Source of the DNA: a virus
Length of the DNA: 64,000 nt
IMG/VR virus record: IMGVR_UViG_3300027734_000042
Direction: 5' to 3' (one strand)
Positions 3,211 to 17,940 of the stretch are shown here, piece after piece (within the stretch, counting starts at the first letter, position 1; every line of letters starts with the position of its first letter). A program made the position numbers and the translations under genes. The notes beneath the pieces are model-generated. The model saw only the letters and a list, made by a program, of their open reading frames with translations, did not search any database and was not told where the DNA came from.

Positions 3211-3831
3211 ATGAGCCCCCAATTTTTAGTTATAGCTTACTACACGGAAAACACTCCGTATGAAGCACTCGCAGCAAATCTTAAAAAGTCTTTACAACAC
3301 TTTGCAATAGCTCATCACATAGAAGGAATAGCAGATCTTGGCTCTTGGGAAAAGAATACACATCACAAAGCATATTTTATTAAAAAGTGTTTAACAGATA
3401 GAAATCAAGATCTATTATGTGTAGATGTTGACGCAGTCTTTAAACAATATCCGAGTCTTATACCGGATCTCACCTGTGATATAGCATACAGGACACAAGA
3501 CTTCAGATGGAGAAAAGACGAAGCCTTATCAGGAACTATCTTTCTAAAGAATAACGACAAAGTTAAAAGACTTGTTGATCGATGGATCGAACTGAATGAA
3601 GCTACCCCCGCAGAAAGAATGAAGCCTGAAACATGGGAGCAAAAAAATATGCAAAGGGCTCATAGAGAAATGAGCGAAATTGATTATTATAATTTACCTC
3701 CCGAATACACTTTCATATTTGATCATATGAAAACAATGTACCCAGGAATATCCCCTGTAATAGAGCATTATCAAGAATCAAGGAATGTTCATAGAAATAC
3801 GAATCAAAATCGTAATTTCAGGATAAGATAA
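3211..3831 (+). CDS. GT-A fold glycosyltransferase (nucleotide-diphospho-sugar transferase-like)
   Basis: KAYFIKKCL...LLCVDVDAVF DxD motif, SGTIFL, WEQ, LPPEY, IEHYQESR. Confidence 0.75.
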   Translation: MSPQFLVIAYYTENTPYEALAANLKKSLQHFAIAHHIEGIADLGSWEKNTHHKAYFIKKCLTDRNQDLLCVDVDAVFKQYPSLIPDLTCDIAYRTQDFRWRKDEALSGTIFLKNNDKVKRLVDRWIELNEATPAERMKPETWEQKNMQRAHREMSEIDYYNLPPEYTFIFDHMKTMYPGISPVIEHYQESRNVHRNTNQNRNFRIR

Positions 3832-3833
3832 GC

Positions 3834-4568
3834 ATGGAATTAAAATATGCCGTAGTCAGCTCAGATTCAAATCCTGAATATCTAGATTTTTGGCCATATG
3901 TAGCAAGGGCTTGGAAAAGAATAGGAATAGAGCCTATTCTTCTTTATATAGATAAACAAAAGCCGCACGAGAGCGTACATGACCACGGGAGGGTAATATA
4001 TCTTGAATCAATCCCCGAATGGAGTATAGCTCAACAAGCACAATGTATAAGATTTTGGGCAGCTAAGATATTAGATGCTCCTTTTATCATATCCGATATG
4101 GATATGCTTCCTATATCAGAGGATTATTATAAACGGGGAGTCTCCGAGATTGGTGGTCAGGGTTTAGTTTCTTATAGCTCTGATATTATTAAATACCGAT
4201 GGTACATAACAAACCCACAGTATCCAATGTGTTATTTGGCTGGCGATCCTGATAGTTTTTGTGGAATATTAGAAATAACTGAGCCTACTCATCAAGAATT
4301 TCTTCGAAGATTAATAAGAATGAATTTAAGATCTGGTACTGATCAGAAATTCTTCTATAATCAATCTTTAAAAAATAGACACTACAAAATCAAGCATTTA
4401 GAGAGGGGATGGATAGATGAAAAATATGCTACAGGAAGGCTCGATAAGGTTATATGGCCTAAAACTGGGTATAACGTAGATGAATATATAGATTGTCATC
4501 TACCAAGACCCCTCACTTCAAATATTGATATTTGTAAAGAGCTCTTCGGTAAACTTAAAATAGATTAA
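3834..4568 (+). CDS. putative glycosyltransferase
   Basis: QCIRFW, IISDMDMLP DxD motif, YPMCY, TDQ, IDCHLPRP; glycan-locus context. Confidence 0.6.
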   Translation: MELKYAVVSSDSNPEYLDFWPYVARAWKRIGIEPILLYIDKQKPHESVHDHGRVIYLESIPEWSIAQQAQCIRFWAAKILDAPFIISDMDMLPISEDYYKRGVSEIGGQGLVSYSSDIIKYRWYITNPQYPMCYLAGDPDSFCGILEITEPTHQEFLRRLIRMNLRSGTDQKFFYNQSLKNRHYKIKHLERGWIDEKYATGRLDKVIWPKTGYNVDEYIDCHLPRPLTSNIDICKELFGKLKID

Positions 4569-5378
4569 ATGAAGCTGTCAATAATACTCCCAACAGGAGG
4601 AAACGATCATCTAAGAAATCGTAATTTTAATGAGTGTCTTTCCTCTATTAAGAACCAAAAATTCACAGACTATGAAGTAATAGTAGTCGAACAATCTTTG
4701 GATGGGAATTTTTACAAGTCTACTAACCCGATACTAAGCTATAAACATATAGGTATTAACGATCTACAGAATAGGGGATTTAATTTAAGTTGGTGCAGAA
4801 ACGTAGGTGCTAGAGAAGCTCAGGGTGATATTATAGTTCTAATGGATTCCGATTTTGTTTTTGAGGATAATTATTTTTCTGTTATAAGCGAATTTAAAGG
4901 CGAATTTGCAGCAGGTGCAGAAACTTATTATTGGTGTAATACCGAAGAACCAACATCTGAGTGGTTAAGAACGAAGGACTTTAATGTTTTTAGAAGAAGA
5001 GGAGCTGGTCATAGAGATCCTGTATTTAAATTTAGATCTATGTCTAGAGGATGCGGATACGGAGCTATCCTAGTTTATAATAAGGAATGGTTTTGGGAAA
5101 CTATGGGTGGATACAACGAGAATTTCTTTAGATATGGCTGGGAAGATAAAGCAACAACTGAGATGATTAAGTCTTTGTTATCTAGAGATGACGAGAGTAT
5201 GCTTAGAATACCATACGAAGCTGCACACTTAAGCCATACATCTAAAGACGTAAGAAATTTGAATACTAACGAAGCTCTTTTCTATAAGTTTACTAGAATG
5301 GATCAGAGGGAGCTTTCTAGAATAATTAAGGAATCTGGTGTTGGAAAAAGATTAGAACCCACTGTAATAAATGTTTAA
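4569..5378 (+). CDS. glycosyltransferase family 2 / GT7-C-like
   Basis: KLSIILP, EVIVVEQ, FNLSWCRNVG, LMDSD, GGYNENFFRYGWED. Confidence 0.85.
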   Translation: MKLSIILPTGGNDHLRNRNFNECLSSIKNQKFTDYEVIVVEQSLDGNFYKSTNPILSYKHIGINDLQNRGFNLSWCRNVGAREAQGDIIVLMDSDFVFEDNYFSVISEFKGEFAAGAETYYWCNTEEPTSEWLRTKDFNVFRRRGAGHRDPVFKFRSMSRGCGYGAILVYNKEWFWETMGGYNENFFRYGWEDKATTEMIKSLLSRDDESMLRIPYEAAHLSHTSKDVRNLNTNEALFYKFTRMDQRELSRIIKESGVGKRLEPTVINV

Positions 5379-15842: not shown

Positions 15843-16611
15843 AATATTAATAGCGGGTCCTTGTGTTATTCAATCATGGGATACTTGCTACGAGATTGCT
15901 ATCGAAGTAAAAAGATGCGCTGGACTTTATAATTTTTATCCAGTATTCAAAGCTAGTTTTGATAAAGCAAATAGAACGTCTTATGACGGCTTTAGAGGCA
16001 TAGGTATAGATAAAGGATTAGAAATACTTAAAAATATAAAAGAGAGGCTTGAAATCGGTGTTATTACAGACGTACATGATGTTTCACAAGTTGAAAAGGT
16101 AGCTTCTGTTGTAGATATTTTACAGGTTCCTGCTTTTCTTTGTAGACAAACAGATCTCATAGAAGCTTGTGCTAGAACCGGTAAACCCACGTTGGTTAAA
16201 AAAGGACAATTCCTTTCCCCTGAATCATGTAAATTCATAGAAGATAAATTTTATAAAGCTGGAGGATCTGTTTTAATCATAGGGGAAAGAGGAAATAGCT
16301 TTGGGTATAATGATTTAATTGTTGATGCAACTTCAATAAGCAGGTTAAAAAAATCTTGTGAAAGATCTGTAATAATAATGGATTGTACACATAGTCTACA
16401 AAGACCTAATGGACCAAGTGGTAAGACTGAAGGGAGAGGAGATATGGTGGAGGATATGGTTAAATTTGCTGCAGTTATGGGAGCTGACGGGTTATTTATT
16501 GAAACACATCCTTATCCTGAATTATCTCCATCTGATTCTGAGAATATGCTACGATTAGGATTATTTGAAGGTGTAATAAAAAAAGCAAGAAAAATATATG
16601 ATGCAGAATAA
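15808..16611 (+). CDS. kdsA: Kdo-8-phosphate synthase
   Basis: LIAGPC, KASFDKANRTS, QVPAFLCRQTDL, KKGQFLSP, ERGNSFGY, DCTHSLQ, FIETHP. Confidence 0.95.
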   Translation: MLDILERNQKNKILIAGPCVIQSWDTCYEIAIEVKRCAGLYNFYPVFKASFDKANRTSYDGFRGIGIDKGLEILKNIKERLEIGVITDVHDVSQVEKVASVVDILQVPAFLCRQTDLIEACARTGKPTLVKKGQFLSPESCKFIEDKFYKAGGSVLIIGERGNSFGYNDLIVDATSISRLKKSCERSVIIMDCTHSLQRPNGPSGKTEGRGDMVEDMVKFAAVMGADGLFIETHPYPELSPSDSENMLRLGLFEGVIKKARKIYDAE

Positions 16612-17317
16612 ATTACTTGATATTGTAATAATAAGTTATGCTAAAGATGACTATTGTAAATCCCTTACAAAAAATTGCATATTCTCAATATTGCTTTCTG
16701 AGGAAAATGTGGTTGATAATTTTAATATTATAGTAGTTGAATCTGAACCTGGAGTTAAATGGGAATATATTGCAGAAAATGTAAAAACATACGAAGCTCC
16801 ACTTCCTTACGGATATCACAAATTCTTAAATTTTGGAAGAAAAAAAGAAAACTCTCAATGGGTTGCTTTATGTAACAATGATCTTGAGTTTACTAATGGA
16901 TGGTTTACCAATATTCTCAAAGCATCTATAGAAAATCAAGACACCTTATCTTTTTCTCCTATATGTCCTAGAACACAGACCATGTATGGAATATTTGAAA
17001 ATACAGGATATTACATGGGATACAACATAAGGAAAGAAATCTCAGGATGGTGTATAGTACAGAAGAGGGATATTTATGAAATAATTGGAGATCTTGACGA
17101 AAGATTCCATCATTGGTTTTGCGATAATGATTATGCTATGGAACTTCAGTACCACGGGCTTTCACATATTCTTGTAACAGATTCAGTTGTTGTACATCAT
17201 GATAAAAACATAGGAAAAACAACCGAAAGGGTAGTTACTGATTCTAATCAAATGCATGAAATGACTATGGGATCTCAACCTATATTTATTGAAAAATGGA
17301 AAAATAAAATAAAATGA
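16598..17317 (+). CDS. glycosyltransferase family 2
   Basis: DIVIIS, IIVVES, LCNNDL, GWC, LDERF..WFCDNDY. Confidence 0.8.
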   Translation: MMQNKLLDIVIISYAKDDYCKSLTKNCIFSILLSEENVVDNFNIIVVESEPGVKWEYIAENVKTYEAPLPYGYHKFLNFGRKKENSQWVALCNNDLEFTNGWFTNILKASIENQDTLSFSPICPRTQTMYGIFENTGYYMGYNIRKEISGWCIVQKRDIYEIIGDLDERFHHWFCDNDYAMELQYHGLSHILVTDSVVVHHDKNIGKTTERVVTDSNQMHEMTMGSQPIFIEKWKNKIK

Positions 17318-17940
17318 AAAGATACGAAATAATTAACAGGGTAATAGAGTCTAAAGGATACAGTGATTACCTTGAGATAGGTGTAAGAGATGGTAAATGT
17401 TTTAAGGAGATATGCTGTAAAAATAAAACAGGCGTAGATCCTAATCCAGTTAGTTCTGACACTACCCATATAATGACATCTGACGATTTCTTTAGTTCTA
17501 TCACTGAAGATACTAAATTTGATGTGATTTTTATTGATGGATTACATTTAGATTTTCAGGTTGACGTTGATATAGAGAATTCACTAAAACATCTTAAGGA
17601 AGGTGGAACAATACTTCTACATGATTGCAATCCTCCTACATCATTTCATGCTGATACTAAGCCTAATTTTGGTCCTCCAGCAAACGGTGAATGGAATGGA
17701 ACAGTATATCTTTCTTTAATTAAATTGAGACTATATAACAATAATGTTAAACTAAGAACAGTAGATAGCGACTGGGGAGTTGGAATACTAACTAAAGATC
17801 TTAGTGAAAGTATAAACGTTTTCCCTAATGATGCAATTAGCTGGGATTTCTTTGATTCTAATAGGAACACAGTACTTGATATAATTACACCGGATGAATT
17901 CTTAGAATTATATCCGGTTGAAGTTTTAAATGTTAATTGA
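17314..17940 (+). CDS. class I SAM-dependent methyltransferase (Methyltransf_24-like)
   Basis: YLEIGV, GVDP, FDVIFIDGLH, LHDCNP. Confidence 0.85.
   Translation: MKRYEIINRVIESKGYSDYLEIGVRDGKCFKEICCKNKTGVDPNPVSSDTTHIMTSDDFFSSITEDTKFDVIFIDGLHLDFQVDVDIENSLKHLKEGGTILLHDCNPPTSFHADTKPNFGPPANGEWNGTVYLSLIKLRLYNNNVKLRTVDSDWGVGILTKDLSESINVFPNDAISWDFFDSNRNTVLDIITPDEFLELYPVEVLNVN

Follow-up and report, generated by a model that had tools for sequence, protein, structure and literature searches.

A 64,000-nt stretch of viral DNA (IMG/VR virus record IMGVR_UViG_3300027734_000042), which we refer to as the window, contains a block of glycan genes that fills positions 3211 to 17940 with exactly 20 open reading frames (ORFs), all on the plus strand. 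This block is a self-contained pathway of soluble enzymes without export machinery, as are the corresponding islands of ten relatives, and export machinery is likewise lacking across the whole record of G002, at 248 kb the longest of the IMG/VR relatives (estimated completeness, 85%). Across the lineage, both end modules of the island are conserved, and what lies between them is swapped from phage to phage in the manner of a serotype cassette. As to what the pathway decorates, we tentatively favor the structural proteins of the phage itself, that is, glycosylation of the virion.

Within the block, neighboring genes are spaced by −35 to +46 nt, and the GC content (0.31 to 0.34) is that of the rest of the window. 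Eight genes are transferase-like (g1, g2, g3, g4, g5, g8, g13, and g19), g4 being the weakest assignment. Alongside these glycosyltransferases (GTs) stand sugar-making enzymes, namely, Gmd, a short DegT/perosamine-synthase-like aminotransferase, KdsD (SIS domain only), and KdsA. Further members are FabH, a short-chain dehydrogenase/reductase (SDR), a hexapeptide acyltransferase, PhyH, Methyltransf_24, DUF1796, and a WbuC-like cupin. The genes are as follows.

g1, 3211..3831, plus strand: conserved left anchor; small GT-A glycosyltransferase, PF03407/GT34-like by its look-alikes in the Atlas.
g2, 3834..4568, plus strand: conserved left anchor; GT-A transferase in which the ISDxDMxP (DxD) motif is invariant; its family has no name.
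g3, 4569..5378, plus strand: GT2 (PF00535, 41.5 bits; cut-off, 23.3).
g4, 5384..6400, plus strand: probably a GT-A transferase, GT7/GT2-like; its N-terminal extension is basic.
g5, 6401..7069, plus strand: GT25 (PF01755, 38.4 bits; cut-off, 24).
g6, 7069..7782, plus strand: classical SDR, FabG-like ketoreductase (PF00106, 167 bits; NCBIfam SDR/FabG-type models).
g7, 7784..8194, plus strand: small WbuC-like cupin (TIGR04366, 35.7 bits, below the cut-off of 42).
g8, 8196..8990, plus strand: GT11, the alpha-1,2-fucosyltransferase family (PF01531, 73 bits).
g9, 8994..9938, plus strand: FabH-type ketoacyl synthase III (NF006829, 324 bits; cut-off, 249).
g10, 9940..10452, plus strand: hexapeptide-repeat sugar N/O-acyltransferase of the NeuD/PglB/VioB or WbbJ type (Pfam and NCBIfam).
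g11, 10462..11109, plus strand: no family match; N-terminal IGDSHS.
g12, 11131..12039, plus strand: PhyH-family Fe(II)/2-oxoglutarate dioxygenase (PF05721, 73 bits).
g13, 12032..12880, plus strand: GT10-like, the alpha-1,3/4-fucosyltransferase family (direct match weak; 2nzw, E 0.002).
g14, 12885..13586, plus strand: DUF1796 (PF08795, 40 bits).
g15, 13570..14202, plus strand: shortened DegT-family aminotransferase of 210 aa (PF01041, 63.6 bits).
g16, 14249..15244, plus strand: GDP-mannose 4,6-dehydratase, Gmd (PF16363, 387 bits).
g17, 15264..15842, plus strand: conserved right anchor; arabinose-5-phosphate isomerase KdsD, SIS domain only (TIGR00393, NF008141).
g18, 15808..16611, plus strand: conserved right anchor; 3-deoxy-D-manno-octulosonate (Kdo)-8-phosphate synthase KdsA (NF003543, 307.6 bits; cut-off, 242).
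g19, 16598..17317, plus strand: conserved right anchor; GT2-type (phrog_22332, E 5e-14).
g20, 17314..17940, plus strand: conserved right anchor; S-adenosylmethionine-dependent methyltransferase, Methyltransf_24 (PF13578, 38.4 bits).

None of the 20 block proteins contains a transmembrane (TM)-like 19-residue Kyte-Doolittle segment. The two highest hydrophobicity scores belong to the hydrophobic N terminus of g8, which is the GT11 GGLGN motif rather than a TM helix, and to a beta-helix, which is not TM-like either. Pfam and NCBIfam searches of the same 20 proteins gave no match to initiating transferase (including PF02397 and PF00953, the WbaP/WecA-type polyprenyl-phosphate enzymes), flippase, polymerase, or ABC exporter families, nor to a permease with its ABC ATPase (Wzm/Wzt, KpsMT), and no polytopic ORF is present among them. 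Similarly, the TM scan of the 20 proteins, the window, and G002 showed no GtrA, GtrB, GtrC, or Oac membrane protein, and the ORFs of the window and of G002 have at most four predicted TM segments each. Among the 147 cassette proteins of the ten relatives there is no credible TM helix, with a single marginal segment scoring 1.65.

The same scan did detect proteins with 5 to 18 TM segments within 10 kb of g2 homologues on 8 of 16 bacterial contigs, but on none of the 23 distant viral contigs and at none of the 12 island loci. The scan is thus able to detect such proteins, and it is the phage islands themselves that lack them. A strongly hydrophobic ORF of 161 to 198 aa was seen at ∼5.4 to 6.5 kb, ∼4 kb upstream of g2, in five loci (L026, L027, L033, L035, and L036); this small membrane protein, which would map beyond the left end of the window, was ruled out as Wzx or Wzy, as it lies outside the island, is too small, and has no Pfam match. 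A first-pass annotation of the DNA had described 20 co-oriented, tightly packed genes with about eight GTs plus sugar-making and sugar-decorating enzymes, without a recognizable flippase, Wzy, ABC exporter, or initiating transferase and without TM helices in the GTs, and had set them apart from the GtrABC and Wzy-type proteins of serotype-converting phages. The ORF map, the family, fold, and motif evidence for eight transferase-like genes, and the agreement of family searches with the TM scan bear out this description, as does the lack of polytopic proteins here and of an integrase in five relatives.

The second line of evidence comes from related phages, for which the first-pass annotation had proposed a synteny comparison. 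Using g2 as a probe, we recovered 22 IMG/VR loci of the lineage, 10 of which were examined in detail. All 10 keep both ends of the island and differ in the middle, with a g2-to-d4 interval of 12.7 to 23.6 kb and flank identities of 50 to 89%. At the left end, u1 to u4, g1 (60 to 88% identical in the 10 relatives and 44% in the distant 462-kb record LR756500.1), and g2 are kept, and g3 is kept in some (72 to 84% identical in L063, L065, L066, and L029, i.e., 4 of 10 islands). At the right end, KdsD (59 to 84% identical), the GT2 gene, and d1 to d4 are found in all 10, KdsA in 9 (50 to 82%; none seen in L074), and the methyltransferase in 8 (64 to 75%; none seen in L067 and L071). The dehydratase at the g16 position is only 42 to 45% identical to the Gmd of the window, compared with 70 to 84% for its neighbors.

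The middles of the relatives comprise 10 to 21 genes each, mostly unrelated to g3 to g15 of the window; pooled, these 147 genes fall into 70 families, 40 of them singletons. We annotated these cassettes by a Pfam tally and two sampled sets. The tally lists FkbM methyltransferases (16), epimerases/4,6-dehydratases (14 to 15), GT10 (8), GT2 (6), DUF5672 (5), Methyltransf_24 (5), WbqC (3), GT11 (3), GT6 (2), MptE-like (2), and DegT (2) proteins. The sampled cassettes add a pyruvyltransferase, a cytidylyltransferase-cupin fusion, a class-III aminotransferase, and a dehydroquinate-synthase-like enzyme. In the island of G003, a trio comprising an FkbM methyltransferase, the class-III aminotransferase, and the cytidylyltransferase-cupin fusion is inverted (L063 14842-17701, minus strand), and the dehydroquinate-synthase-like gene lies near it.

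Close relatives, too, are mosaics. When L001 is compared with the window, identity is 92% as far as g10, g11 is missing from L001, and identity then stands at 77% over g12 and g13 and at 96% from g15 onward; these jumps show that recombination within the island has been recent. Along the same lines, g11 is present in the window and L002 and absent in L001 and L003, and L002 carries ∼0.8 kb of extra sequence after g11.

The left anchors g1 and g2, which have no clear family match, were examined through their predicted structures. The AlphaFold2 model of g1 (predicted local distance difference test [pLDDT] score, 75) has a GT-A fold, and its best solved match is A64R of PBCV-1 (Z 14.1 to 14.4; root-mean-square deviation, 3.0 Å over 162 to 168 of ∼200 residues). 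It has the size and fold of the A64R N-terminal domain, at a sequence identity of 10 to 11%; the runner-up family scores Z 12.6, and other GT-A families are <2 Z units behind A64R. The closest viral models are GTs of Fadolivirus and Tetraselmis virus (21 to 28% identity). For g2, the model (pLDDT, 90) is GT-A/GT8-like, with KfiA, LgtC, LARGE1, and glycogenin tied at Z 12 to 13. All 152 homologues of g2 are unnamed and without a Pfam family. The family is not confined to phages, as homologues occur in Dependentiae/Babeliales, including a complete 1.2-Mb genome (L077-L092), in Verrucomicrobia, and in other metagenome-assembled genomes (MAGs). In the Atlas, g1 has look-alikes in giant viruses and Chlamydiota. 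The two transferase families thus seem to be shared within a gene pool of protist-associated microbes and viruses.

Several of the other assignments deserve comment. For g4, all matches are weak (PF13733 and PF10111 below cut-off; beta4GalT7, E 0.004). A g13 homologue (L069:3423-4265, 36% identical) exceeds the PF00852 cut-off. The cupin g7 is possibly a sugar isomerase or epimerase, and the IGDSHS of g11, judged by eye, suggests an SGNH-type esterase or acyltransferase. The Atlas clusters of g14 span Uroviricota, Bacteroidota, and Nucleocytoviricota. The aminotransferase g15, whose best solved match is GDP-perosamine synthase 3bn1, lacks the C-terminal domain and retains the pyridoxal phosphate lysine (SFxxxK aligned); this short form recurs in relatives. 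The Gmd assignment of g16 includes a TIGR01472 score of 381 bits, below the cut-off of 415. In g19, the NND and DLDE..DND motifs are invariant across nine aligned sequences.

The genomic setting is that of a T4-type contractile-tailed phage, as indicated by a baseplate hub (gp5-like, 26.3 to 27.2 kb) and wedge (gp6-like, 36.1 to 37.8 kb). The wedge protein is 36 to 39% identical to those of LR756500.1 and Lak phages, with more distant kin in Tenacibaculum, Chryseobacterium, and Flavobacterium phages, and a search of sequencing runs listed the window DNA for freshwater metagenomes and for no RNA data set. A tyrosine integrase (PF00589) is absent from five relatives including G002; serine recombinases were not searched. 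The phage looks lytic, a distantly T4/Lak-like jumbo phage of freshwater Bacteroidota, and its lineage fits the large aquatic Bacteroidota phages described with four core glycosyltransferase groups and unexplored variable islands (PMC12619734). Among 50,697 phage records, Megablast returned no match to the locus. A 30.6-kb contig in a "Bacteroidetes bacterium" MAG (L076, JAQCAB010000017.1) carries u4, g1, and g2 at 65 to 88% identity; it most likely derives from a phage and was either placed in the bin of its host or misbinned.

In this lineage, the island sits between candidate capsid-cargo genes and the baseplate operon. Neither u1 to u4 nor d4 to d7 have any counterpart in PHROGs, Pfam, or the PDB, so that it is the hub and wedge genes, 8 to 18 kb downstream, which place the island beside the tail module. 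The genes that separate the island from the structural genes are the following.

d1 to d3, 17974..19337, plus strand: conserved small genes, present in all ten relatives.
d3, 18774-19337, plus strand: NUDIX hydrolase (PF00293, 25.6 bits; cut-off, 21.1) with its own GATATATA box at −14/−12.

The NUDIX hydrolase may be tied to sugar-nucleotide handling, in a role like that of a GDP-mannose hydrolase.

Expression of the island was approached through the sequence ahead of g1.

Control region, 3133..3210, plus strand: locus-specific conserved block CTAMAATTTTTA ... AAATCCCRGGCTATGAAT, upstream ORF, and TATATATA box.

The TATATATA box lies at 3195-3202, 9 to 16 nt ahead of the g1 ATG. The TATATA hexamer is underrepresented in the window (44 found versus 72.8 expected), and it precedes 8 of the 45 plus-strand starts by 10 to 25 nt. 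In G002, 63 of 160 TATATA copies fall 8 to 32 nt before predicted starts, a zone that makes up 3% of the genome, which amounts to a 12-fold enrichment. The flanks of these boxes give GATATATA(A), with a sharp peak of TATATA starting at −10 (16 of 63); window starts such as 19842 and 61827 are further examples. In the window, operons that contain baseplate genes and other large virion genes begin with this motif. The GATATATA box is a plausible late promoter if T4 TATAAATA is taken as the model, and the −10 peak, again by analogy with T4 late promoters, would yield leaderless or nearly leaderless mRNAs.

The box is accompanied by a ∼45-nt conserved noncoding block, which occurs nowhere else in the window or G002, and by an upstream ORF of 5 to 9 codons that starts at −26/−25 from g1 in 11 distinct relatives. 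In the window, this ORF spans 3185-3214, its stop overlapping the g1 ATG; it ends in an ATGA overlap with g1 in five sequences. Block and ORF together may constitute a translational-coupling or regulatory leader. Scans of 2300-20000 for sigma-70-type promoters and terminators stayed at chance level. We did not call GAAAY-N17-CTACAAT before g1 as a promoter class, there being only 2 to 3 copies per genome, and a hairpin in the conserved block is unsupported, as its 5′ arm, inspected by eye, is not conserved.

The island encodes its own donor supply. KdsD and KdsA give Kdo-8-phosphate (Kdo-8-P), which is left to the host to convert to CMP-Kdo, and Gmd with the perosamine-synthase-like aminotransferase gives a GDP-6-deoxy/4-amino sugar, if the short aminotransferase is active; FabH, the ketoreductase, and the hexapeptide acyltransferase can N-acylate this sugar with a hydroxyacyl group. 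To these are added roughly eight GTs and tailoring enzymes for methylation, hydroxylation, and other modifications. What, then, does the pathway decorate? Our leading reading, held tentatively, is a glycan built on virion proteins. In this scheme, sugars would be added stepwise to at least one structural protein of the phage while it is still in the cytoplasm, either ahead of particle assembly or in its course; the conserved end transferases may lay down an inner part on a conserved acceptor, with the swappable middle adding a strain-specific outer part. Such a scheme would mirror virion glycosylation in chloroviruses and Megavirinae and, on a smaller scale, in mycobacteriophages.

Several lines of evidence argue for the virion as acceptor. 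The machinery is soluble only, the lifestyle is apparently lytic, and the design of conserved ends and swapped middle resembles the fibril glycosylation clusters of Megavirinae, which are clade-specific in gene content (PMC10117803). The best solved match of g1 is a capsid-glycan GT, and its closest viral models are found in giant viruses of eukaryotes. In addition, a near-consensus late-type box precedes g1 in the window, and the island lies between candidate capsid-cargo genes and the baseplate operon. According to PMC12619734, which cites Freeman 2023, virion glycosylation in tailed phages is established for mycobacteriophages. With somewhat less assurance, one may picture strain-specific "glycotypes" in which the anchors lay a conserved, Kdo-containing methylated inner glycan and the cassette makes a fucose/perosamine-type N-acylated outer glycan. 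Speculatively, Bacteroidota hosts might bind the sugar coat through their outer-membrane systems for glycan uptake.

A number of observations weigh against this reading. The virion is a putative acceptor, proposed from genes. Enzymes of GT25, GT11, and GT10, GT8-like folds, and Kdo are what one usually meets in lipopolysaccharide (LPS), lipooligosaccharide (LOS), and capsule synthesis, and bacterial g2 homologues occur in loci with flippase/polymerase-like proteins. The modeled fold likeness of g1 to A64R, with a margin of <2 Z units over other GT-A families, is silent on the acceptor. For g1 and g2, tblastn among phages matched solely two uncultured huge phages; no cultured phage has a relative of either at the BLAST level, not even the mycobacteriophages whose virion glycans are proven. 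The first-pass annotation had concluded late expression from a TATATA box shared with virion genes; the box is real in the window, but it is exact before g1 only there and in L019 and L020, the other relatives having TATATTAT, TATAATAT, or no box, which makes late expression conjectural. Its placement of the island beside the tail module likewise holds within the lineage but not in LR756500.1, where the sugar cluster is ∼178 kb from the baseplate wedge gene.

The Kdo branch adds to these objections. KdsD and KdsA are core genes of the lineage, KdsA above its cut-off and KdsD as a SIS domain only. KdsB (PF02348) is absent in G001, G002, G005, G006, G007, and G010, all incomplete records, and the sole PF02348 match, in G003, is to a cytidylyltransferase-cupin fusion of NeuA-like type; no family search covered KdsC. 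With KdsD and KdsA but no KdsB, the lineage seems to feed Kdo-8-P into the host KdsC/KdsB steps, and the branch thus seems to depend on the host LPS pathway. In LR756500.1 (L075 9600-22969), a g1-like domain stands beside KdsA, KdsB, and a protein of 408 aa whose C-terminal part is a SIS domain, and the Kdo genes are paired there with a KpsS/KpsC-type (PF05159) enzyme. The cluster further contains methyltransferases, a sulfotransferase, a pyruvyltransferase, and an 836-aa multidomain transferase. The layout of the 408-aa protein, ending in SIS, is that of CroV crov265. Because the g1-like domain and Kdo genes occur together in LR756500.1, far from the wedge gene, the g1-Kdo link predates the tail-adjacent position. 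Kdo alone does not point to LPS, however, as Kdo pathways lie within the glycogene clusters of CroV and Fadolivirus (PMC9614988).

Nearly as likely as the virion, and possible without being our preference, is remodeling of the host envelope. Here, soluble phage GTs would add sugars to a lipid-linked acceptor of the host on the cytoplasmic side of the inner membrane, be it the lipid A-Kdo core (as in an LOS outer core) or an undecaprenyl- or phosphatidylglycerol-linked primer, with export by host MsbA/Lpt, Wzx, or an ABC transporter; the purpose would be receptor masking against superinfecting phages or keeping progeny off debris. Lipid A-core glycans leave the cell via host MsbA/Lpt, and LOS is extended without a dedicated flippase. 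The core-extension route therefore requires neither a phage flippase nor an initiating enzyme, and their absence is compatible with a product on the host surface. The GT25, GT11, GT10, GT2, and GT8-like families, KdsD/KdsA, the reliance on host KdsC/KdsB, the KpsS/KpsC-type domain adjoining KdsA/KdsB in LR756500.1, and the polytopic membrane proteins adjoining bacterial g2 homologues all fit this alternative, which is also the published reading of analogous pelagimyophage (PMC7029224) and cyanophage (PMC12801897) islands.

Against the host envelope speaks, first of all, that the phage appears strictly lytic and that the late-type box in the window would imply the wrong timing for exclusion. 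Moreover, each of eleven differing cassettes would have to suit the export and ligation machinery of its host. The nearest relatives of g1 occur in viruses of eukaryotes, and the eukaryotic hosts of giant viruses have no LPS. Finally, our literature searches returned, and we know of, no experimental case of a lytic phage that rebuilds host LPS with such an island.

Another cytoplasmic acceptor is improbable in our view, even though every enzyme is soluble. Candidates would be a nonvirion phage or host protein, a soluble carrier freed at lysis as a decoy, or a small molecule, in which case FabH, the ketoreductase, the aminotransferase, PhyH, and the methyltransferases would form a pathway to a glycosylated natural product. 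FabH, SDR, PhyH (weakly halogenase/hydroxylase-like), aminotransferase, and methyltransferase genes do occur in secondary-metabolite clusters, and the G003 island adds its dehydroquinate-synthase-like enzyme and class-III aminotransferase. Yet eight GTs with nucleotide-sugar genes point to an oligosaccharide. No carrier protein, nonribosomal peptide or polyketide synthase, resistance gene, or export gene was found among the block genes, and FabH, SDR, and acyltransferase accompany Gmd and an aminotransferase, as in N-acyl amino-sugar pathways. Hypermodification of DNA, with GTs glycosylating modified genome bases against restriction, is very improbable: there are phage GTs that can assemble glycans on DNA (Pyle 2024, cited in PMC12619734), but a thymidylate-synthase-family hydroxymethylase (PF00303) is absent from G002 (85% complete), Kdo, N-acyl amino sugars, fucosyltransferase-family enzymes, and eight GTs are unlike known DNA glycans, and a hypervariable cassette is unexpected for a DNA mark.

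"LPS-like" sugar clusters have been known in large aquatic myoviruses since the first cyanophage genomes. The present lineage offers a natural experiment, with at least 11 phages that share the same two anchor modules, differ in their middles, and have no membrane component. If the virion is the acceptor, the making of complex, strain-specific coats would extend from giant viruses to tailed phages, with a bearing on adsorption, grazing, particle stability, and the glyco-chemistry of viromes; virion glycotypes, if true, would mean that no other tailed phage has so large a virion-glycosylation system and that bacterial viruses have a counterpart of Megavirinae fibril glycosylation. If the host is the acceptor, this would be the first defined lytic phage to rebuild its host's envelope with a serotype-like cassette. 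Either answer would give functions to unnamed families (g1, g2, and DUF1796).

Compared with known systems, the island is of a known type, the hypervariable glycan islands of large T4-like aquatic myoviruses, in another lineage. Hypervariable GT-rich islands occupy a fixed place in the structural region of pelagimyophages (the "host recognition cluster") and cyanomyophages (PMC7029224), and clusters of cyanophage S-SCSM2R contain up to 13 transferases plus kdsA/kdsB (PMC12801897). With these islands, including the cyanomyovirus "LPS/cell-wall synthesis and modification" clusters of P-SSM2, S-SCSM1, and S-SCSM2R, the window shares a large aquatic myovirus as carrier, many GTs with nucleotide-sugar genes (kdsA in S-SCSM2R), and nonsyntenic content at a fixed site near structural genes; both are known from genes. 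In contrast, the lineage studied here is Bacteroidota-type with a Lak/LR756500.1-like baseplate, and its island is a single tight operon with defined conserved end modules and without tail-fiber genes or kdsB. This architecture is unusually clean, and membrane components are documented to be missing across the lineage.

Bacterial LOS/LPS outer-core and Lewis-antigen synthesis employs GT25 enzymes of the LgtB/Lic2 type, the GT8 enzyme LgtC, and GT10/GT11 fucosyltransferases. The window has in common with it the GT families, stepwise soluble enzymes, high variability, and, if core-linked, the lack of a flippase, but its island is encoded by a lytic phage and has no lipid A or core genes. Wzx/Wzy O-antigen and capsule loci likewise combine nucleotide-sugar genes and several GTs in one cluster, but the window island has no initiating transferase and no 10- to 12-TM flippase or polymerase. 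Serotype-converting temperate phages (GtrABC, Oac, and Wzy-type) also change a glycan by phage-encoded means; theirs, however, are polytopic membrane proteins combined with lysogeny, whereas here there are no membrane proteins and no integrase.

Among viruses that glycosylate themselves, the mycobacteriophages Che8, Corndog, and Myrna reportedly decorate their virions. They, too, are tailed phages whose own soluble GTs, some with methyltransferases, modify capsid and tail-tube proteins, but their cassettes consist of few genes, use host sugar donors, and show no BLAST-level homology to g1 or g2. The giant-virus clusters (chlorovirus A64R and partners; Megavirinae with 6 to 33 genes; Kdo in CroV and Fadolivirus) share with the window soluble cytoplasmic enzymes (PMC10117803, PMC9614988), their own nucleotide-sugar pathways for bacterial-type sugars, clade-specific content, and Kdo inside a glycogene cluster, and g1 is structurally closest to A64R and to the Fadolivirus and Tetraselmis virus GTs. 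Ours, in contrast, is a tailed phage of a bacterium, known here from genes alone, and the likeness is one of fold (10 to 28% identity) rather than of family membership.

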